Assembly (NCBI GenBank): GCA_028275885.1
Contig: JAPWTW010000003.1
Location: 1 to 32,000, forward strand
DNA: 32,000 nucleotides
DNA from: Candidatus Nanopusillus sp.
Lineage (GTDB): Archaea; Nanobdellota; Nanobdellia; Nanobdellales; Nanobdellaceae
Reading direction: 5' to 3'
Shown: positions 8,419 to 32,000 of the stretch, in pieces
Layout of the letters: every line of letters starts with the position of its first letter
How positions within the stretch are numbered: the stretch's first letter is position 1
The notes under the pieces: generated by a model
What the model was told of the DNA's origin: nothing
What the model saw: the letters and a program-made list of their open reading frames with translations, nothing else
Database searches by the model: none
Made by a program: the position numbers and the translations under genes

Positions 8419-9834
8419 TTATTTTGTAATTCTTATAATTAATCCATTAGAATATTTAACTCTATCCCAAATTAAATATCTATATCTTAATTCTACTCTT
8501 GGTAATTCTATGTTTTTATATTCCTTTATATCTTTTGCTTCTAATGTATATGAAATAACTATTTCTTCATTTCTTCTTATATTGTCAAATTTCCAGTTCA
8601 AAGTATAGTTATTATCTACTTTATAAACAGATGATGGTTCTACAATTTTATATTCTTTTATTTTTAATGGTCCGTTTACCCTATCTATTAATTTAACTTG
8701 ATTTAATGGGAATATACTCTTATTTTTTATATTTATTGTTACATCTATTGTTTCTTTATCTAAATTAATCTTCAATATTTCTTTTGATATCTTTAAATTG
8801 TCTCTTAAGAATACATAAAATATTATAAATAATATTATTATTGTTGAAGCTATAATTTCAGCTAATAATATATAATTAAAGTTTTCATATATTATATAAG
8901 ATTGTCCTGGTAATAAAAATATATTATATATAGCATATTTAGATTCATTTATATTGCCAGTATAATATTGACTTGGATAAAATGTAGAAAATATTCCATA
9001 ATAATATTTTAAATAGTAAGTATAATTAATTGAATAATTGTAGGGATTTGTTATATTTATTATATATTTTAATCCTTCTTTAGTTATTTTTATTATTGGG
9101 GTTAAATTTAATTGAAAAACTGTGAAATTTAGATAATATGTATTATTATTTGAATATACTATTAATTGATGCTCTCCTATAGAAACATTATTCGATATAA
9201 ATATTGGAATTTGATATATATTTACTCCAGGAACTAATATTTCATTATAGAACGCTGAAAAATTAATATCAGAAGATATATTAATTGATAAATTTTGACT
9301 GAAATTATTTGGGTTATTTATTATTCCTATTAAATATATAAAGCTATTTTGAGCTACTGTTGAACTTGATAATTCAAAGTTTATTGATAATGGTAGAATA
9401 GTAGTTGAATTTGTTATAATTGGCTGATTATAATATAATACTGGAGTAAATTGAATTTTATTTGAATAATATTCTGAGGTAATATTTAGATTATGCAAAT
9501 ATATAACTATTTCTGGTATTTGATTAACAAAACCTAAAGGCCTCATATATATTTTTATTTCCTTTAATTGACCAGGATATAAGTATCCGGAAATCATTGT
9601 ATTATTTTCTCCTATAATAAAGAACCATTGAGAGGATAGTGAAGAAATACCATAATAATATGTATAATTTGTTGGATTATATATATTTATTTCATATACT
9701 GCATAACTATTTGGGTTTGATATATTAATTTGATTATTTATTACTACTGGATACCCAATTATTGGCTGCTGAGAATAAATTTCTAGCATAACTGATATAA
9801 TTAACATACCTAACAAAATTTTTTTCCAATCCAT
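8419..9834 (-). CDS. Predicted surface glycoprotein with signal peptide, one internal TM helix and a C-terminal beta-rich domain
   Basis: N-terminal signal-like MDWKKILLGMLIISVMLEIYSQQ. A long N/Y/S/I-rich region is dense in N-x-S/T sequons. The TM segment is LLAEIIASTIIILFIIFYVFL. The ~125-aa tail (LIDRVNGPLKIKEYKIVEPSS...YTLNWKFDNIRRNEEIVISYTLEAK) is reminiscent of DUF11/CARDB-type repeat domains. Confidence 0.6.
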   Translation of the reverse strand: MDWKKILLGMLIISVMLEIYSQQPIIGYPVVINNQINISNPNSYAVYEINIYNPTNYTYYYGISSLSSQWFFIIGENNTMISGYLYPGQLKEIKIYMRPLGFVNQIPEIVIYLHNLNITSEYYSNKIQFTPVLYYNQPIITNSTTILPLSINFELSSSTVAQNSFIYLIGIINNPNNFSQNLSINISSDINFSAFYNEILVPGVNIYQIPIFISNNVSIGEHQLIVYSNNNTYYLNFTVFQLNLTPIIKITKEGLKYIINITNPYNYSINYTYYLKYYYGIFSTFYPSQYYTGNINESKYAIYNIFLLPGQSYIIYENFNYILLAEIIASTIIILFIIFYVFLRDNLKISKEILKINLDKETIDVTINIKNKSIFPLNQVKLIDRVNGPLKIKEYKIVEPSSVYKVDNNYTLNWKFDNIRRNEEIVISYTLEAKDIKEYKNIELPRVELRYRYLIWDRVKYSNGLIIRITK

Positions 9835-9875: not shown

Positions 9876-10676
9876 TTAACTATATATTAAACCTATTAGG
9901 CTAACTATTATTGCTATACTACCAAGCATATAGTTAATATAATATATTTTTTTACTTTTTGCTAATTTCATTAAAATACCAATAGTTAAATAACCTACAA
10001 TAAATGAAACAACTATTGCAGTTAAAATTCCATGATATCCTATATTAGATACTACATATATAATATTAGATTTAGAAGCTAATATAGTTAGAAAGAAAGC
10101 TCCGAGAGCTGCTGGTATATATAAAATATATGAAAGGGAAAAAGCAAATTTTGGATCATATTTCATTAATAACATAGTAGATGTTGTAATTCCAGATCTA
10201 CTAACACCAGGTAGAACAGCAAGCCCTTGTGAAATTCCAATAATTATTGTATCTCTTAAATTAAGATCTTTTTTATCTTTTATTTTTATCTTATTTCTTG
10301 TATAATATATATAGATACCATCTAAAATAAGTATTAATCCCAAAATTATCATTGGTATAGATGGATTATATACATTTTCTAATAATTTATCAGAAATAAT
10401 ATATAAAGGAGCGCCAACTAATCCTGTAAAAATTATTGCAATAATTATATAGTATAACATTTTTTTATCTTTTAATATTTGGTATATATCTTTCTTAAAG
10501 TATGATAAAGCAGAAAATACTGTTCCAATTTCCATAAATAATCCAAATGTATATCCAATTGATGGATTAATATTTAATAAATAATTTGAAGCTATTAGAA
10601 TTTGTGTTTTACTACTTATTGGCAACCATTCACTGACACCTTGAATTATTCCCAATATTATTGGATATAAATCCAT
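9876..10676 (-). CDS. uppP: Undecaprenyl-diphosphatase (BacA/UppP family)
   Basis: Polytopic membrane protein with both family motifs: GIIQGVSEWLPISSKTQ and LAVLPGVSRSGITTST. Confidence 0.9.
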   Translation of the reverse strand: MDLYPIILGIIQGVSEWLPISSKTQILIASNYLLNINPSIGYTFGLFMEIGTVFSALSYFKKDIYQILKDKKMLYYIIIAIIFTGLVGAPLYIISDKLLENVYNPSIPMIILGLILILDGIYIYYTRNKIKIKDKKDLNLRDTIIIGISQGLAVLPGVSRSGITTSTMLLMKYDPKFAFSLSYILYIPAALGAFFLTILASKSNIIYVVSNIGYHGILTAIVVSFIVGYLTIGILMKLAKSKKIYYINYMLGSIAIIVSLIGLIYS

Positions 10677-10728: not shown

Positions 10729-11514
10729 ATGATTAGAAATTATATATTATCATTAATTTTGTATATAGAATCTTCTATAGCTTTATACTTTTCTTATATA
10801 TATTTCTTAGATTTAATAAATAATTTATTATATTCAACAATAAATTATGTTCTTTTATTTATCTTATCAATTAGTTTATTATCTTTTTTAATAACATTTT
10901 ATTTAGGAACATATTTTTCAAGAGAAATAAAAAATAAAACCTTCTATTTAATTATTGGAATTATATATTATGTTATTGGTCTCTTACTATTTAATAATTT
11001 TATAAACATATATATAACGATTTCTCTATTCTTTATATTTAAAATAATAAAAAAGGAATATTCTTTTTTTGCAATGTTAATCTATTTTCTATCTATCTTA
11101 CTCGTTGTTCTTAATAATTCAATATTTATTAATATAATAAATCAATTTATACATAATAAGTTAGAAAATCTTTATATTTCAAACATTAAAGATCTATATC
11201 AAATGTATGAATATCAATTATTAAATACATATATTGGTGGTTATAAGACAGCAATAAATATTTTAGAAAATGAAGGAGATACAAATGGAGCATATATATT
11301 GTATAACAATTTGGCATATGTAAACCAAACTTTCTTAAATAACTTAAATTCTACAATAAATGAATATCTAAGTCAGTATAATCAAACTATTAATTATAAT
11401 TTAGAAAGCATTATAAATAATTTCTCATTTGAAATAAATGTATCAATTGCCCTACTCTTTATTACTTTGTTTGGAATATTTTTAGAAATTAATAAAAGAG
11501 TGGAAGGTTTATAA
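10729..11514 (+). CDS. Hypothetical polytopic membrane protein with an N-x-S/T-rich extracytoplasmic segment
   Basis: ATG ORF with about five hydrophobic helices, then a polar N/Y-rich segment (NQTFLNNLNSTINEYLSQYNQTINYN) and a final TM helix. No recognisable family. Confidence 0.5.
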   Translation: MIRNYILSLILYIESSIALYFSYIYFLDLINNLLYSTINYVLLFILSISLLSFLITFYLGTYFSREIKNKTFYLIIGIIYYVIGLLLFNNFINIYITISLFFIFKIIKKEYSFFAMLIYFLSILLVVLNNSIFINIINQFIHNKLENLYISNIKDLYQMYEYQLLNTYIGGYKTAINILENEGDTNGAYILYNNLAYVNQTFLNNLNSTINEYLSQYNQTINYNLESIINNFSFEINVSIALLFITLFGIFLEINKRVEGL

Positions 11515-21054: not shown

Positions 21055-21555
21055 TCATGATAATGTATATCCATTAGATATTGGATTATCATAATAATAT
21101 ACATAAATAGTAGAACCAGCTAAAGAAGATATTCCAAAACTATTCATATTGACTGTCATATTTATTAGAAATATTGAATTTTGAGGTATTGTACCATTTA
21201 TTAATGAGGTAGCAGATGATGGATCTGTTATATTATAAATATAACATGCTAAATATCCTCCCATATTACTACTTAAAACTAAAGGACATTTTTGACTTTT
21301 TCCATTAGTAGAAGAAAATGATACTAAAAGATTATTTCCGACTAATTGAGCAGATCCTATATTTTGAACTAAAATAGATATATTACCATTTGAATTATTA
21401 TAAATTACCTGTAATATCTGAACTTGAGCACCTAAGTTTGAAACTTGACTACTAACATAACTTCTTGCCCATCCAACTATAATTGCACCTAAAGCTACTG
21501 TTAGAGCAATTAATATAATTGTTGCAATCAAAGGAGATACAGCTTTTATTTTCAT
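21055..21555 (-). CDS. Archaeal type IV pilin-like protein (DUF1628 / class III signal peptide)
   Basis: The N-terminus MKIKA-VSPLIATIILIALTVALGAIIVGW is the canonical archaeal prepilin signal (K-A cleavage context plus hydrophobic helix). It is followed by an S/N/G-rich beta-type domain with N-x-S/T sequons. Confidence 0.85.
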   Translation of the reverse strand: MKIKAVSPLIATIILIALTVALGAIIVGWARSYVSSQVSNLGAQVQILQVIYNNSNGNISILVQNIGSAQLVGNNLLVSFSSTNGKSQKCPLVLSSNMGGYLACYIYNITDPSSATSLINGTIPQNSIFLINMTVNMNSFGISSLAGSTIYVYYYDNPISNGYTLS

Positions 21556-26256: not shown

Positions 26257-27051
26257 TTATGGCCATATCCATCTTCTATATAAACCTTTTTCATTTGCAA
26301 AATTATTTGCTCTTTGATAGGATTCTATTGTACCAATATCAAACCAATATTCATTATCATCATTATATACATATCCATATAATTTTTCTCCCCTTTTTAT
26401 TAAATATTCAAAGAAATTTCCTATAGAATCTTTACTATAATTAGAATTCATATATTCATCTAATAGATATAACTTTTCCTTTGGAATATAATATATTCCA
26501 GTAGATACTGTAGTATAAGATGGATTTTGAGGTTTTTCATAAAATTCCTTTATTATATTATTTTCTAATTTTACTACTCCATAATTTTTTGCATCATTAT
26601 AATTTTTTATATCATATATTGCCAAAGTTATAGAATTATTTTCATTTCCTAACTTAATTATTTTATTTAAATTAAAGCTAAATAAATTATCCCCCAACAA
26701 TATTAGTAAATTATTGTTTATTTCCATTTCTTTTATTGCATAATGTAAACCACCAATTGATCCTAGTTTATTTTCTTCAGAATTTGACGGCTCAATTACC
26801 AATCTTATTTTTCCAATCTGAGATGGTTCATAAAAAGAATATAATGATGCTAAAATGTGCCTAAAATGATTTTCATATTTTTTATTCGTAGATATAATTA
26901 TTTCATCTGACCCTGTTTCTAATGCTTTTTCTATTATATAGTATATTAAAGGTACTCCTCCTACTGGAAATAATGGTTTTGGTACATAGTCTGATAATGG
27001 TCTAAATCTCCTTGCAAAACCTCCTGCTAATATTAAAGTATCTAGACTCAT
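26257..27051 (-). CDS. Sugar-1-phosphate nucleotidyltransferase (RmlA/GalU/ManC-like)
   Basis: The N-terminal signature LILAGGFARRFRPLSDYVPKPLFPVGGVPLIYY, LLGDNLF, YGVV and EKP indicate the glycosyl-1-P nucleotidylyltransferase fold. Confidence 0.85.
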   Translation of the reverse strand: MSLDTLILAGGFARRFRPLSDYVPKPLFPVGGVPLIYYIIEKALETGSDEIIISTNKKYENHFRHILASLYSFYEPSQIGKIRLVIEPSNSEENKLGSIGGLHYAIKEMEINNNLLILLGDNLFSFNLNKIIKLGNENNSITLAIYDIKNYNDAKNYGVVKLENNIIKEFYEKPQNPSYTTVSTGIYYIPKEKLYLLDEYMNSNYSKDSIGNFFEYLIKRGEKLYGYVYNDDNEYWFDIGTIESYQRANNFANEKGLYRRWIWP

Positions 27052-27073
27052 AAAGAAAAATTATCAAAAAAAT

Positions 27074-30000
27074 TTATGAATAAAATAGTTGATAATTTCC
27101 AAATCCTTGGGGTACAAATGTATTATTTGTAGATATTATATTTCTATTACCTGCTACTATCTTTTCTACAATATAACTAGTAGCAGGTGGTAAATTAATA
27201 AATGTAATATTTCCATTTATAGTTCCTATTATTGATATACCTGCATAATAATTATATAATGTGTTATTTACTTTCGTATTATACATTATACTACTTAAAC
27301 TATTTATGAATCCTTGTGAATTATAATAATATACATCTACACTTCCTGTAGATGTTGTTAAATTATTTATATATCCGCTTCCATATATTGCAATTCCTAA
27401 CTGTGAATTGTATAATGATATATTTGCTGCATTACCTGTTAAATAATATCCAAATATTCCGCCATATGTTGTTACATTTATTATATTATTTGGTTGAGTT
27501 ATATATAATCCAAATACTTGTCCTACCTTTATATAAACATTTTTTATATTATTTCCTGATGATGTTAAATATATTCCAAATATGTTTGATTGTACACTAT
27601 TATTTATTATAATATTATTATTTCCGTTATTTATTCTTATTCCAAATATATTAGAAATTATATTACTGTTCTTTATTGTATTATTTATTGCAATTCCATC
27701 AAAATATACTCCAAATATTTGTCCATTTATGTTTGAATTATCTATTATTACATTATATGGATTATTAATATACACACCCCATACAGAAGATTGTATATTA
27801 GTATTATTTATTGTTGAATTTTGTATATAACCATATATAGATCCTATATTTCCCTTTATTGTAGAATTATATACATTTACTACTGATGGATTTTTTACAT
27901 TTATTCCAAATAATCCCGAATTTATATTTGAATTTATTAAATTTAATTCTCCATTATTTACATTTATTGCAAATAAATTTGTATTAATATTTATATTTTG
28001 TATTGTTACATTTGATGATAATATTTGTATAACAGGTAATCCTGGATTTGCAGGTTCAAATATTGTATTTTGTCCTAATAATGTTATATTTTTACCCTGT
28101 GGATCTATTACTAAGTTTACTAAATATACTCCTGGAGAGAATACTACTACAGGTATAGAACTATTAATTGCAGAATTTATTATTCCTTGTATTTGTGTAC
28201 TACTTAATGTATTATTTACTACAGATACATTATATGCATTTTGTGATATATATATTACTTGTGGATTTGTATATTGATTTAATCCATAACTATTATATGC
28301 ATATACCCTATACCATATGGAATAGTATCCATTACTATCTAATTTTGCATATTGCTGCAATATTCCATTATATAATATATCTGAACATGAATTTGCTATT
28401 GTTACCCATTGATTACTTGTTTGATTTAAGAATTGTATTTGACAATAATATTGACCTAAGGTATTATCATATATATTTGTATTAATTCCTAGTAACCATA
28501 TATTTTCTTTCGTACCATTCGATGGTGTGGGATATACATATGATACATTAAATATTGGTGGGGGTAATGTATAAACATATATTCCGGTTGAATTTATTTG
28601 TCCTAATGGATTGGATGTTGATAATTGTATTGTAATATTTCCCCCATTTGGTATAATATTATATAATCCTGGCAAATTATATGATGAATTTTGATAATTT
28701 AATTGGATAACATTATTACCTGGTGTTACACTTATATTATATGTATTTCCATTTATTGTTATATTTACATTTGGATAATTAATATAGAATGATATATTTA
28801 GTTGATAATAGTTTGATACTGAATTATTAGATGGAGAAATAATATATATTTCTGGATTAACTATAGGAATTACTGTAATTGTAGTAGAATTTGTAGCTCC
28901 ATTTAATGCAACACCAGTTACTGTTACACTATAAGTACCTGGTTGTATATTACTATTTGCACTTACTGTTAAAGTTACTGATGCATTTGGAGTAACTTGA
29001 GTACTTGATAGTGAACAAGATAAATAACTACTATTTGTAGAACAGGATAGAGTAACTGGTAATGGAGATCCACCACTTAATTGAGTAATATTTATTATTG
29101 TAGAATTTGAAGAACCAGCATTTACATATATACTATTTGGTCCCTGTATTGAAAATGAATATGGTTGTACATTAACTATTATAGCAGTAGAATTTGTAGC
29201 TCCATTTAATGCAACACCAGTTACTGTTACACTATAAGTACCTGGTTGTATATTACTATTTGCACTTACTGTTAAAGTTACTGATGCATTTGGAGTAACT
29301 TGAGTACTTGATAGTGAACAAGATAAATAACTACTATTTGTAGAACAGGATAGAGTAACTGGTAAAGCGGTATTTCCTGTTAATTGATTTACATATATTG
29401 TTGTAGAATTACTATAATTTGTATAAACATCTATACTACTTGGTCCTGTAATATTAAAGGTGAATACTGGAAATCCTAATACTAATGCAGAAACATATAC
29501 TGTTGATCCTCCACCACGATTAACAGTAAACGAGATACTATAAGTACCTGGAGCTAATTTATTGCATACCGCAGCATATACACTAGCTGCAGTTCCAGAA
29601 GATGTTAAAAATAATTGTGAACATCCGCTAGGTAATGTTACTCCACTAATAGTTCCTCCTCTATTTGTTCCCCCCGAAGATAATAATATTAATACTGTAT
29701 TATTTTGTCCAGAAATTGTAAATGGAATTGTTACCGTTGTTGTCGCAGTATATGTATTTGTAAAAGTAGTTAAAATAACTGGAACGGAATAATTATTTAA
29801 AGAGACCCCACCTATTACATAACTTGTAGCTGTAGTAGTAAATGAACATGAATTTGTACTAGAATTTCCAATTACTGCATAACCTCTGTTATTTACCATT
29901 ACATTAAAGCTTGGAGTAAGGGTTGAACCGGTAGAAGAAGCAACACAATAATATAAATTTGCTGTAGGTAATGTTATACTATTAGCTACAGCACTATTAT

Positions 30001-30100
30001 TTCCAACAACAGCCGCTCCTACTTGTGAATATATATTGGGTGCAAAAATCAACAATAGAAAATTTATTATAATAAAATATAATATCTTCTTTATCTCCAT
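27074..30100 (-). CDS. Large secreted surface protein: signal peptide, G/S/T-rich N-domain, two tandem 101-aa Ig-like modules, and a NosD/pectate-lyase-like right-handed beta-helix (candidate S-layer protein or adhesin)
   Basis: The best start is ATG 30100 (MEIKKILYFIIINFLLLIFAPNIYSQ, signal-peptide-like); an upstream in-frame ATG at 30151 is the track start. The beta-helix N-cap is TQIQGIINSAINSSIPVVVFSPGVYLVNLVID. About 10 coils of 20-25 aa follow, each with an h-F/W-G-h-x-h motif (LFAINV, LFGINV, WGVYIN, IFGVYF, IFGIRI, IFGIYL, VFGLYI, IFGYYL). There are very many N-x-S/T sequons and no C-terminal TM anchor. Confidence 0.85.
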   Translation of the reverse strand: MEIKKILYFIIINFLLLIFAPNIYSQVGAAVVGNNSAVANSITLPTANLYYCVASSTGSTLTPSFNVMVNNRGYAVIGNSSTNSCSFTTTATSYVIGGVSLNNYSVPVILTTFTNTYTATTTVTIPFTISGQNNTVLILLSSGGTNRGGTISGVTLPSGCSQLFLTSSGTAASVYAAVCNKLAPGTYSISFTVNRGGGSTVYVSALVLGFPVFTFNITGPSSIDVYTNYSNSTTIYVNQLTGNTALPVTLSCSTNSSYLSCSLSSTQVTPNASVTLTVSANSNIQPGTYSVTVTGVALNGATNSTAIIVNVQPYSFSIQGPNSIYVNAGSSNSTIINITQLSGGSPLPVTLSCSTNSSYLSCSLSSTQVTPNASVTLTVSANSNIQPGTYSVTVTGVALNGATNSTTITVIPIVNPEIYIISPSNNSVSNYYQLNISFYINYPNVNITINGNTYNISVTPGNNVIQLNYQNSSYNLPGLYNIIPNGGNITIQLSTSNPLGQINSTGIYVYTLPPPIFNVSYVYPTPSNGTKENIWLLGINTNIYDNTLGQYYCQIQFLNQTSNQWVTIANSCSDILYNGILQQYAKLDSNGYYSIWYRVYAYNSYGLNQYTNPQVIYISQNAYNVSVVNNTLSSTQIQGIINSAINSSIPVVVFSPGVYLVNLVIDPQGKNITLLGQNTIFEPANPGLPVIQILSSNVTIQNININTNLFAINVNNGELNLINSNINSGLFGINVKNPSVVNVYNSTIKGNIGSIYGYIQNSTINNTNIQSSVWGVYINNPYNVIIDNSNINGQIFGVYFDGIAINNTIKNSNIISNIFGIRINNGNNNIIINNSVQSNIFGIYLTSSGNNIKNVYIKVGQVFGLYITQPNNIINVTTYGGIFGYYLTGNAANISLYNSQLGIAIYGSGYINNLTTSTGSVDVYYYNSQGFINSLSSIMYNTKVNNTLYNYYAGISIIGTINGNITFINLPPATSYIVEKIVAGNRNIISTNNTFVPQGFGNYQLFYS
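28859..29464 (-). repeat. Two tandem 303-bp (101-codon) modules inside the surface protein gene, sharing a perfectly identical 179-bp core
   Basis: By direct comparison, 28884..29062 and 29187..29365 are identical base for base (gtagaatttgtagctcc...gagtaactggtaa), with an offset of exactly 303 bp. The remainder of each module is clearly diverged. Confidence 0.95.
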
Positions 30101-30173
30101 GATATATTTAGAAAATATTACCATATATAAAATTATGATTGTTAATAACATTAATCATTTATGATATCAAACC

Positions 30174-30247
30174 CGGGCCCGGGGGGATTCGAACCCCCGA
30201 TCTTCGGGTTAAAAGCCCGACGCTTTACCAGACTAAGCTACGGGCCC
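30174..30247 (-). tRNA. tRNA-Lys (anticodon TTT)
   Basis: The reverse complement GGGCCCG-TA-GCTT-AGTCTGGTA-AAGC-G-TCGGG-CTTTTAA-CCCGA-AGATC-GGGGG-TTCGAAT-CCCCC-CGGGCCC-G folds as a perfect 74-nt cloverleaf. There is no intron and no encoded CCA. It has 47/74 G+C by hand count. Confidence 0.95.
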
Positions 30248-30274
30248 AGCAATATTTAATTTATATTTATGATT

Positions 30275-30290
30275 CTTATATAAATTTTTC
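30275..30290 (-). promoter_or_regulatory. Candidate BRE/TATA promoter of tRNA-Lys
   Basis: The minus strand reads GAAAAA-TTTATATA-AG, with the TATA box centred about 32 nt upstream of the mature tRNA 5' end. That fits a short leader. This is a weak call because the whole genome is AT-rich. Confidence 0.4.
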
Positions 30291-30291
30291 A

Positions 30292-30978
30292 TTATCCATA
30301 TAAAGATATATAATTTATAGATCCATTAAAATATTGAAAATAATTTAAATGTACTGTTGGATAAATATTCATTAATATGTTTGGAAGACCAACAATTTTA
30401 TCTCCATTATACAAGTATAGTACAGTATTATAATTATTTATAATTAAAAATTTTTCATTTGTATTTATGTAAATACTAGAATTTCCAATTAAATTAAAAT
30501 TACAATATAGGAAAGTTCTTGTATATACACTAAAAAAAGATGAACTTAGATAATTGTTGCAATTATAATATGCAGAATTATTTGTTATACTAATATTTTG
30601 TGTTGATCCATATATATAAACTTGTAAAATAGATGATACATTTATATAAGAGTTCTGTATTATTTCTATATTGTTTGAACTCATATTATAAAAAAATTCT
30701 ATACAATTATTACAAATAAATGGATTTGTAGACAAAAATATAACTTTTGGAGTATAATAATATGAAAAAGAAAAATTTAAATAATTATATACTTTTTGTG
30801 GATCATAAAATTGAGAAAAATAAAAAGAACTGGTATATAATTTTTGATATTCAGACATTTTATACAATCCAGAAGAATATTGAGATAATCCATTGACTAC
30901 ATCTTGATACATATAAATTACAATATATAAAAATACAGCAAGTGTAATTAATACTTCAATCCAACTTTGAGACTTCAT
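30292..30978 (-). CDS. Hypothetical N-terminally anchored, pilin-like extracellular protein (228 aa)
   Basis: The N-terminus [24 protein letters not shown] is a short charged leader plus a hydrophobic helix. The rest is N/Y/S-rich with N-x-S/T sequons. The ATG overlaps the stop of the upstream TadC/FlaJ-like gene (ATGA). Confidence 0.6.
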
Positions 30979-32000
30979 ATTGTTACATTAATAATTTGCT
31001 TTTGTATATATCTTTTCCCATTATAGTTTAATATTGCTTCTACAATATATGTACCAGTATTATTTAAAGCAATAGACTGAGAATAATATCCATTTTGTAA
31101 TATTTGAAAATTCTGATAAACATAACTTCCAGCTGAATTTATTACATATATCGCTAATGGAGCATTTGTTATTGGTTGTGCATCAATATATCCATATACT
31201 TGTATGTTTATTGGGGTATATATATAAGCAGTTGTTGGGAAAACTTGTAAATTAAACGATACAAAAGATGGTAGAACAAAAATTACTATAGATAATAATC
31301 CTATTAAATTGTTTATTGCTAAATGTTTTACTGAAGATCTTATTTTTCCACTTTCAGCAATACCCATTATAATTGATGCCGAAATTCCTACCATGATTAT
31401 TGATAAGGCTGTAATAAATTTTAACCATGAATAATTTATTTGAGAAGAAAAGAAATTGAACTGTGTATGAACAGTAGAAGCTGAAATTTGACTTATTATC
31501 AATGGTTTAATTGTACTTAATATAGAAATTGATAATCCAATGAATATAATAAATATAGCATATAAAACTAATATTTGTTGCGATACATATGCTCTCTTTA
31601 GTCCATCCAATTCCTTTACAGATTCTAGATCATTGTATAATCTTTTTAAAACCTTTGAAATATCACCTCCACCTTTATATGTTTCTAATATTACATAATT
31701 AATCATCTTTATATTTGGAAGGTCTTCAAAATACATGTTAAATAATGTAAATGCTTTTTCAAATGGCATACCCCAAACAATCCAATTATATAATTTTTTA
31801 ACTAAAACAGATAGATATCCCAAATCTATTGATGATAAATATGCCAGAGCATCCAATAATGTCATTCCAGATGCTAAACTTTCAGATAGATAAGATAGAA
31901 AATATGTATAATTATTAGATATATTTTCATATATTTTACTTTCAATATACTTGTAAAATAGGTATGGAACTCCTCCCACAAGATATATAACTATTATTAA
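30975..32000 (-). CDS. TadC/FlaJ-type (T2SS-F domain) membrane platform protein of an archaeal type IV filament system, 3' portion; the gene continues beyond the right edge
   Basis: The T2SSF-like segment is LSESLASGMTLLDALAYLSS...WGMPFEKAF...ETYKGGGDISKVLKRL, followed by TM helices. The track start (GTG 31979) is arbitrary, because the frame stays open to position 32000. The C-terminal 92 aa form an extra soluble beta-type domain. Confidence 0.8.
   Translation of the reverse strand, partial: LIIVIYLVGGVPYLFYKYIESKIYENISNNYTYFLSYLSESLASGMTLLDALAYLSSIDLGYLSVLVKKLYNWIVWGMPFEKAFTLFNMYFEDLPNIKMINYVILETYKGGGDISKVLKRLYNDLESVKELDGLKRAYVSQQILVLYAIFIIFIGLSISILSTIKPLIISQISASTVHTQFNFFSSQINYSWLKFITALSIIMVGISASIIMGIAESGKIRSSVKHLAINNLIGLLSIVIFVLPSFVSFNLQVFPTTAYIYTPINIQVYGYIDAQPITNAPLAIYVINSAGSYVYQNFQILQNGYYSQSIALNNTGTYIVEAILNYNGKRYIQKQIINVTI

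Follow-up and report, generated by a model that had tools for sequence, protein, structure and literature searches.

The 32,000 nucleotides analysed here (the window) are positions 1-32,000 of contig JAPWTW010000003.1, have a G+C content of about 23%, and encode proteins that share 82-100% identity with their counterparts in Candidatus Nanopusillus acidilobi and in related hot-spring metagenome genomes; judged by these sequences, the source is a close relative of that organism. A block at the right end of the window (26257-32000, minus strand) contains, in order of transcription, genes for a TadC/FlaJ-type platform protein, a 228-amino acid (aa) protein (p228), tRNA-Lys, a large secreted protein (BIG), and a sugar-1-phosphate nucleotidyltransferase (Table 1). 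By comparing this block with related loci, we found that its conserved core is made up of two TadC half-platform genes, the second of which lies beyond the window end, together with p228, usually followed by the nucleotidyltransferase gene. BIG, as far as the sequences indicate, is a lineage-specific, dispensable insert outside that core. We consider it reasonably probable, if far from certain, that the region represents a conserved type IV-filament assembly core that was later joined by a dispensable insert.

A first-pass annotation made from the nucleotide sequence had listed the genes of the block, their order, and their strand, all of which were confirmed by open reading frames, Pfam, and ARAGORN/Rfam. 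The ATGA overlap that it described between the platform gene and p228 is real as well. Among the intergenic distances it gave, the 22 bp between BIG and the nucleotidyltransferase gene are correct, whereas those given as 44 and 73 bp measure 43 bp (p228 to tRNA) and 72 bp (tRNA to BIG). Also supported is its view of the block as a set of cell-surface genes from an episymbiotic nanoarchaeon with a reduced genome.

A conserved core of two TadC half-platform genes and p228

The order p205 / TadC288(-) / TadC418 / p228 was found, wherever the contig reaches, in all 12 loci of the Nanopusillaceae genome scan (Nanopusillus, Nanobsidianus Nst1, YN1, and KM4331 genomes, and Nanobdella) and in 20 metagenome loci. 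Here TadC418 is the platform protein, TadC288 is its divergent 288-aa T2SSF partner, and p205 is a protein of 205-220 aa with one N-terminal membrane helix, of the simple signal-anchored type. Within Nanopusillus, the TadC pair and p228 are intact at 87-94% identity. At greater distances, TadC418 with an extra C-terminal domain, together with an overlapping gene whose product carries Glu at +5 of a candidate cleavage site, persists in four loci (L047, L023, L024, and L048) at 26-42% identity, the TadC418 of L047 being 42% identical. In all relatives, the platform gene still overlaps p228 by 4 bp. These observations support the view that the two genes form a deeply conserved, translationally coupled pair. 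Of the gene string whose conservation the first-pass annotation had proposed to examine in related genomes, the TadC pair and p228 are conserved, the nucleotidyltransferase gene usually so, and BIG not.

Judged by its length, the platform gene would extend to about position 32231, past the window end, and the full-length 418-aa protein is present in locus L001 and, as Nps_01915 with 94% identity, in N. acidilobi. To the right of the window, where the arrangement was taken by synteny from the N. acidilobi genome and from a 3.9-kb metagenome contig with an identical 228-aa gene, the TadC288 gene comes first, then p205, and then NDK, L24e, and S28e. The first-pass annotation had looked to this side for a secretion ATPase, a prepilin peptidase, and further pilins; a second TadC, a 205-aa anchored protein, and housekeeping genes were found instead. 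TadC418 has one T2SSF domain (PF00482), and TadC288 matches the same model with an E value of 2e-16. A hydropathy scan gave five membrane helices for TadC418 and four for TadC288, the former agreeing with the five transmembrane segments listed for its homologue by Wurch et al. When aligned to ArlJ/FlaJ models, the 288-aa protein covers the N-terminal half and the 418-aa protein the C-terminal half. Because each of them aligns to one half, the platform appears to be split into two genes, and on these profile matches both proteins can be placed in the T2SSF / TadC-FlaJ platform family.

We also considered whether TadC418 is an archaellum platform protein (ArlJ/FlaJ). The NCBIfam ArlJ models gave the two half-platform proteins 49 and 91 bits against cut-offs of 400-550, with half-model coverage each, and no archaellum genes (FlaI, FlaH, FlaG, FlaF, or archaellins) occur within 10 kb of the platform gene. 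The platform is of the TadC type (arCOG01808), and Nanobsidianus Nst1 encodes a separate 549-aa FlaJ. The platform gene is thus not the last gene of a canonical archaellum operon, an outcome that the first-pass annotation had named as one that would speak against its proposal.

The odd number of helices and the K/R-rich N-terminus of TadC418 place its C-terminal ~92 aa on the outside, and this domain is accordingly predicted from sequence to be extracellular. It is probably a small beta-sandwich, as hinted by weak matches of distant homologues to Big_7 and CarboxypepD_reg (E 0.02-0.04). The domain is kept in homologues with as little as 26% identity (L023 and L024) and is missing from those of two distant DPANN loci, L017 and L018 (from Nanohaloarchaea GLR72 and Nanobdellati KA24), exactly where the p228 family is missing too. 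This co-occurrence suggests that the domain and p228 interact with each other. In L017 and L018 the TadC pair directly follows a 627-aa FlaI-like ATPase and is followed by three pilins of ~160 aa, which are homologous to a 166-aa pilin encoded elsewhere in the window. High non-synonymous diversity of a FlaJ/TadC homologue has been reported in Yellowstone Nanoarchaeota.

Table 1. Features of the block and the canonical pilin gene of the window
Feature	Position	Strand	Basis or remark
TadC/FlaJ-type half-platform (TadC418), C-terminal 341 codons of 418 aa	30975..32000, off window end	-	Pfam T2SSF E 1e-12 (window part)
Platform C-terminal extra domain, ~92 aa	30978..31253	-	predicted extracellular
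p228, prepilin-like, 228 aa	30292..30978	-	N-terminal motif; homologue of Nps_01910, MJ1_0432
tRNA-Lys (UUU)	30173..30248	-	ARAGORN; Rfam 78.9 bits
Large protein BIG, 1008 aa, secreted	27074..30100	-	open reading frame, AlphaFold model
303-bp tandem duplication in BIG	28883..29450	-	Tandem Repeats Finder, 1.9 copies, 89% identity
BIG beta-helix domain, ~aa 631-930	27311..28210	-	Pfam Beta_helix, AlphaFold model
Sugar-1-phosphate nucleotidyltransferase, 264 aa, short form	26257..27051	-	Pfam NTP_transferase E 4e-42
Canonical archaeal type IV pilin, 166 aa, outside block	21055..21555	-	NCBIfam TIGR02537

p228 as a candidate prepilin-like protein

p228 starts with MKS, after which the candidate cleavage site falls, and the site reads K-S/Q-S-W-I-E (the slash marks the cut). 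A profile search of 1.84 billion representative proteins returned a p228 family of 15 representatives with lengths of 160-255 aa. Their N-termini consist of Met, one to three Lys or Arg residues, and a small residue (mostly Ser, also Gly or Ala, and Asn in one), followed by x-x-W(Y)-I-E-F/V-L-I-T/S-F/L, in which the Glu is invariant. Cleavage after the small residue would put this Glu at +5, ahead of a hydrophobic stretch of about 20 residues, and the +1 residue varies among Q, I, V, A, and L. The rules described for archaeal prepilins call for a charged -2 residue and for G/A/S at -1, to which EppA-type substrates add Gln at +1 and Glu at +5 (PMC4371748). With a charged residue at -2, a small one at -1, the hydrophobic stretch, and Glu at +5, p228 has the features of the prepilin processing motif.

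The remainder of p228 is rich in beta-strands and contains four conserved Cys and seven sequons (3.1 per 100 aa). Its AlphaFold model has a helix at residues 6-49 (44 residues) followed by strands only, with a mean predicted local distance difference test (pLDDT) score of 54 and mostly below 50 in the beta part. A helix followed by strands is the architecture of pilins, and at this model quality we take it as a hint.

BIG, a variable insert next to the core

At the site that BIG occupies in the window, the gene is absent in YN1, KM4331-08, and Nanobdella, where p228 is directly followed by the nucleotidyltransferase gene and then tRNA-Lys; in Nanopusillus and Nanobsidianus, the tRNA gene lies between p228 and BIG. 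In Nanopusillus RHS.bin.5 (L009), a 3' remnant with 78% identity is all that remains, and in five other loci (L005, L030, L032, L037, and L040) the gene is broken into fragments. It is because BIG is missing or decayed in these relatives, while the TadC pair and p228 stay intact, that we place it outside the core. The intact orthologues vary in length by whole modules, as those with one, two, three, and four immunoglobulin (Ig)-like modules have 909, 1008, 1108, and 1209-1210 aa, respectively. These steps match the 303-bp tandem duplication in the window, which encodes two 101-aa Ig-like modules of BIG. A host-range or antigenic determinant would be expected to show just such changes in module number together with repeated loss.

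An integrated element at tRNA-Lys was considered as the source of the insert and set aside, as the insert comprises one gene and the 22-bp downstream gap has no space for an attachment-site repeat. The local G+C content rises to 0.32 at 29001-30000, against about 0.23 elsewhere in the window. This rise coincides with the G/S/T/A-rich N-terminal region of BIG, so that it can be attributed to amino-acid composition and foreign DNA is not needed to explain it.

BIG has 1008 aa from the conserved start MEIKK, and a 1025-aa reading from 30151 is also open. Its Sec signal peptide and G/S/T-rich N-terminal region are followed by about five Ig-like modules, then by a right-handed beta-helix, and finally by a conserved tail; no membrane anchor was found in it. 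In the AlphaFold model (mean pLDDT 73.7), residues 1-106 are poorly predicted, about five beta-sandwich modules span residues ~108-630, a capping helix occupies residues 634-646, and the beta-helix at ~650-925, whose short strands repeat at intervals of about 22 aa, has pLDDT values that mostly exceed 85. Scanned by themselves, the C-terminal 378 aa matched Pfam Beta_helix (PF13229) with 28.6 bits against a gathering score of 25.9. The predicted fold of this part is a right-handed parallel beta-helix, i.e., the pectin lyase-like fold. In a Foldseek search, the model matched tandem-Ig adhesion proteins and adhesin extender repeats. The first-pass architecture of a G/S/T-rich N-terminal region, two Ig-like modules, and a beta-helix was right, with about five modules in all. 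Assignment to the pectate/pectin lyase or NosD functional families was rejected, because there was no significant match to solved members and few charged residues are conserved.

The tail of BIG is modelled at low confidence, yet its last 15 residues are the most conserved part of the family. At the extreme C-terminus (27074-27120), the motif ..TFxPxGxGxYxLxYS is invariant in 11 of the 11 aligned members, including paralogues at 40-54% identity. On the strength of this conservation, the motif could be a sorting, retention, or S-layer-docking signal. Lys and Arg together make up 1.9% of BIG. It contains 41 sequons (4.1 per 100 aa), compared with 0-1 per 100 aa in cytoplasmic proteins. Shuffled BIG sequences give 32 +/- 5, so composition accounts for most of the density; the surface proteins are indeed dense in sequons, as first described, but mostly as a consequence of their composition.

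Homologues of BIG include N. acidilobi Nps_01900, a 'putative secreted protein' of Nanobsidianus, and MJ1_0451 (48%) and MJ1_0776 (59%) of Nanobdella. Phage depolymerase tailspikes share the right-handed beta-helix fold, and the head of BIG could on this ground be an enzyme, either a polysaccharide lyase or a glycosidase, by which the glycosylated S-layer of the host is opened, instead of a passive binder. MJ1_0451, MJ1_0701, and MJ1_0776 have been described as pectin lyase-like surface proteins (Kato et al., bioRxiv 2023); MJ1_0451 and MJ1_0776 were reported there to have 36-52 N-glycosylation sites and one to eight Ig folds, and degradation of the host wall was proposed as their role. In the beta-helix of BIG, however, the only conserved charged positions are E682, D801, and K/R822, and E682 and D801 are ~120 residues, or by our estimate about five coils, apart, a long way for residues that would form a catalytic pair. 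When solved structures were searched with a profile of the BIG alignment, nothing was found in the helix region and the one match returned, to Hoc, was insignificant, so that there is no significant sequence match to a solved lyase or hydrolase. Stalks of copy-variable Ig modules and frequent loss are, moreover, typical of adhesins or variable surface antigens. Catalysis by the head has little support from these sequence comparisons, and we rate an enzymatic BIG as doubtful, though deserving of some weight. BIG was also tried as the S-layer protein. The proteins predicted to form the S-layer are Nps760 (N. acidilobi) and MJ1_0160 (Nanobdella); BIG is not orthologous to either, and it is deleted or fragmented in several genomes. 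The first-pass annotation had named a generic S-layer protein unlinked to the platform in relatives as an outcome that would undo its proposal. BIG is indeed unlinked there, but it is not the predicted S-layer protein.

That annotation had proposed one attachment apparatus, which would mean that the platform, p228, BIG, and the nucleotidyltransferase have co-evolved, the filament machinery displaying or exporting BIG at the host contact site. All genes of the block are co-oriented with short gaps, their extracellular parts are all rich in sequons, and BIG, having no membrane anchor, needs some means of retention. Both BIG paralogues of Nanobdella also adjoin genes for filament subunits: archaellin-type proteins of 196 and 205 aa are encoded directly upstream of MJ1_0451 (L025, 6690-11399), and a 159-aa archaellin-type protein, with proteins of 152 and 655 aa, within 4 kb of MJ1_0776 (L026, 3916-11963). 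Against this stand the absence of BIG from the site in Nanobdella, YN1, and KM4331-08, its loss or fragmentation in several Nanopusillus with the core intact, and the tRNA gene between p228 and BIG. In addition, with several filament loci among 600-700 genes, chance proximity would not be rare. A single integrated apparatus thus fails for BIG, and we consider it distinctly unlikely. The Nanobdella neighbourhoods could keep a looser link between BIG and filaments alive, or they could be due to chance.

Secreted proteins of other kinds adjoin the TadC-p228 core in more distant loci, namely a 452-aa protein in L023 (1973-3331) and proteins of 324, 187, and 790 aa in L047 (1-4484), which are rich in Cys or in sequons. 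They have no detectable similarity to BIG. Their variety suggests that the site repeatedly gathers different surface-protein genes.

The nucleotidyltransferase and a possible link to glycosylation

The nucleotidyltransferase belongs to the Pfam NTP_transferase family (PF00483), which it matches over residues 5-253. All of its NCBIfam matches are far below the cut-offs, so that no equivalog was reached, and the closest solved structures are short RmlA-type enzymes. The gene follows p228 in Nanobdella, YN1, KM4331-08, L047, and L023, its product being 43-58% identical, and this linkage is more persistent than ordinary synteny would predict. In N. acidilobi the protein was detected in the proteome at low abundance (Wurch et al.), and the cell surface of that organism carries N-acetylglucosamine and binds wheat germ agglutinin.

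A few kb past the right end of the window, glycosylation-type genes were observed in N. acidilobi (L003, 1-5229) and Nanobdella (L015, 1050-7285). They encode a Polysacc_synt flippase-like protein, a glycosyltransferase family 4 protein (WecA/AglH-like), and a membrane protein of 1155-1192 aa with a weak STT3/AglB match (E 0.006), and they are separated from the TadC genes only by S28e, L24e, NDK, and p205. Going by these domain matches, they are likely an N-glycosylation cluster. A role for the nucleotidyltransferase in glycosylating the surface proteins of the locus is plausible.

Proposed explanation and its significance

In the explanation that we favour, p228 is, most likely, a substrate of the prepilin type and would be cut after K-S by a prepilin peptidase whose gene lies elsewhere. 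A secretion ATPase, likewise encoded elsewhere, would power the extraction of p228 from the membrane by the split platform. p228 would then act as a minor, priming, or tip subunit, or form a short pseudopilus, and would work together with the canonical PilA-type pilin of the window. The nucleotidyltransferase probably supplies an activated sugar for N-glycosylation of the surface proteins of the locus. BIG would be a separately acquired, Sec-exported, and heavily glycosylated protein that is not an obligate part of the machine; its Ig stalk of variable length would carry a beta-helix head that probably binds glycans of the host envelope. In this picture, the genes present, their conservation and variability, and the domain folds were established by the analysis, and the cleavage and assembly steps, the tie to glycosylation, and the binding to the host are inferred. 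The locus is therefore better pictured as a plausible host-contact toolkit than as one fixed apparatus.

A more daring extension is that the TadC pair and p228 form a short pseudopilus device that pushes or holds unanchored glycoproteins such as BIG through the S-layer, or form filaments at the contact site. We see only a faint prospect of this, but if true, Nanopusillaceae and their relatives would possess an archaeal equivalent of type II secretion that is devoted to episymbiosis. In either case, the findings bear on how nanoarchaea recognise and hold their hosts. The p228 family offers a concrete pilin candidate, one with a bacterial-style signature of Glu at +5 that is always coupled to a platform with a gained outward-facing domain. 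The points concerning both p228 and BIG can be tested in two co-cultures, N. acidilobi-Acidilobus and Nanobdella-Metallosphaera.

Several observations weigh against the assembly-core explanation. With respect to p228, none of the pilin models of Pfam and NCBIfam, including TIGR02537 and PF07790, matched at E <= 0.1, and the confidence of its structural model is low. Most members of the family have Ser at -1 and Trp at +3, a combination that the FlaFind rule would presumably not flag. With respect to the machinery, no Nanopusillaceae locus encodes a FlaI/VirB11-type ATPase, a prepilin peptidase, or another pilin at a distance of up to 10 kb, and no assembly ATPase or prepilin peptidase is found elsewhere in the window either. 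The ATPases of Nst1 are encoded elsewhere in its genome and comprise three of clade 2, one of the archaellum, and one of clade 4; a clade-1 (Epd/EppA-type) ATPase was not found there. The membrane and surface proteins of the locus were undetected in the N. acidilobi proteome (Wurch et al.), for which the very low K/R content of these proteins, hampering tryptic detection, offers one reason. With respect to glycosylation, the nucleotidyltransferase gene is absent from L048, and in L041 (13905-14324; WYEB01000225.1) it has decayed to fragments of 51-58% identity with BIG intact. The neighbouring genes IF2, S6e, and TsaD are equally syntenic, so the adjacency of the nucleotidyltransferase gene taken alone is weak evidence. 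RHS.bin.5 is the reverse of L041, having lost BIG and kept the nucleotidyltransferase intact.

The p228 observations lend themselves to another reading, in which the protein stays uncleaved as an N-terminally anchored accessory, comparable to FlaF/FlaG or to a stator or alignment subunit, and is a partner of the extracellular domain of the platform. The conserved W-I-E motif would then be an intramembrane contact. The absence of a match to pilin N-terminal models, the -1 position being mostly Ser and the +3 position an invariant Trp, fits this reading, as do the strict co-occurrence with the extra domain, suggestive of a stable partnership, and the neighbouring 205-aa protein, which is likewise simply signal-anchored. 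However, an invariant Glu at exactly this spacing, five positions behind a small residue that is itself preceded by K/R, is the hallmark of prepilin processing and subunit packing, and one would not normally expect a charged residue to be conserved within a simple membrane anchor. The predicted topology, with a beta domain after a long N-terminal helix, also corresponds to pilin architecture. We consider an uncleaved p228 unlikely, and the idea that its W-I-E motif serves as an intramembrane contact equally so. The label 'pilin-like' of the first-pass annotation is probably right on the evidence of the N-terminal motif, although a family match does not back it, and the family would be an atypical and previously unrecognised one. 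A 2016 census failed to identify the pilins that belong to one clade of nanoarchaeal ATPases (Makarova, Koonin and Albers); that p228 is missed by pilin N-terminal models may explain why.

The missing machinery, in turn, raises the question of whether the linkage has any functional meaning. The TadC pair could be an orphan relic that lacks an ATPase, and its gene order a matter of general synteny; there is no ATPase or peptidase nearby, the flanking housekeeping genes are equally syntenic, and the proteins went undetected in N. acidilobi. Yet the TadC pair and p228 are intact in ~30 genomes or contigs, remain recognisable at 26-42% identity, and always keep the 4-bp overlap. In such reduced genomes a relic would decay, as BIG and the nucleotidyltransferase gene do in some lineages, and archaeal pilus systems whose ATPases act in trans have been described (Makarova, Koonin and Albers 2016). 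A relic is accordingly very improbable in our judgement.

Other surface genes in the window

The block had been called the only clearly accessory one in the window, and this proved incorrect, as the window also has the 166-aa pilin gene, a gene for a 471-aa protein, and one for a BacA-type phosphatase. The 166-aa pilin is PilA/UpsA-like, and its N-terminus, MKIKA/VSPLIATIILIALTVALG, has a textbook class III signal. The protein matches TIGR02537 (arch_flag_Nterm) with 27.2 bits against a cut-off of 20, UpsA with an E value of 9e-8, and Pfam Pilin_N with an E value of 1.4e-4. Its gene sits among translation genes, 9 kb away from those for the platform. The 471-aa protein (8419-9834, minus strand) contains 19 sequons and, besides its signal peptide, a membrane helix at around residue 330, and a 261-aa multi-helix membrane protein (10729-11514, plus strand) has seven sequons; neither has a Pfam match. 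Between these two surface candidates lies the gene for the BacA-type polyprenyl-diphosphate phosphatase (9876-10676).

Comparison with known systems

The first-pass annotation did not recognise the arrangement as a described system. Most of its parts had in fact already been annotated in N. acidilobi, where the site is listed with two 'Flp pilus assembly protein TadC', an 'uncharacterized secreted protein' (arCOG06957), and an NDP-sugar (nucleoside diphosphate sugar) pyrophosphorylase (Wurch et al.), and the BIG family has been described in Nanobdella. Like BIG, the pectin lyase-like proteins MJ1_0451 and MJ1_0776 of Nanobdella have many sequons, Ig-like folds, and a parallel beta-helix. In contrast to the gene for BIG, theirs lie beside archaellin-type genes and not at the TadC locus, and the Nanopusillus orthologues differ from them in that they vary in the number of Ig modules and are often degraded.

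The closest parallel for the locus as a whole is found among archaeal type IV pili. Pilus loci of the clade 2 euryarchaeal type have two tadC genes, trans-acting ATPases, and stand-alone PilA pilins, and archaeal type IV pilus genes have often been reported with large secreted proteins of an adhesin or S-layer-like kind as neighbours (Makarova, Koonin and Albers 2016). By analogy, the locus appears to work like such a clade 2 module with a split platform. It shares with these systems the two TadC genes, the stand-alone PilA-type pilin, and the large secreted protein beside the locus, and homologous DPANN loci have the canonical order ATPase-TadC-TadC-pilins. Unlike in these systems, the tadC genes belonging to the window are divergent, the ATPase is unlinked, and one of the two TadC proteins has an extra extracellular domain, while the subunit gene of the locus comes from a small family with Glu at +5 that standard pilin models miss.

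The signature of the p228 subunit recalls two further systems, the Epd pili of Methanococcus maripaludis and the pseudopilins of bacterial Tad and type II secretion systems. The Epd system has a platform pair, EpdJ/EpdK, comparable to the TadC pair of the locus, and its EppA-cut pilins carry Gln at +1 and Glu at +5 behind a charged -2 residue, as in the K-S/Q-S-W-I-E of p228. In contrast, assignment of the locus to the Epd system was not supported, as Nst1 is without a clade-1 ATPase and Gln at +1 is not conserved in the p228 family (EppA was not searched for). Epd pilins are also much smaller than p228 with its 228 aa and four Cys. The bacterial Tad/Flp pilus likewise has a platform of two single-domain T2SSF proteins (TadB and TadC), and its accessory pilin-like proteins TadE and TadF carry a conserved Glu near the cleavage site. 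Unlike that system, the locus is without a small pilin of the Flp type, TadA, TadV, RcpA, and TadZ, and it belongs to an archaeon with an S-layer instead of an outer membrane. Set against all of these systems, what appears to be new is the p228 family as a prepilin-like partner that co-occurs with the extracellular domain of the platform, and the evidence that the neighbouring beta-helix protein is a variable and expendable insert.

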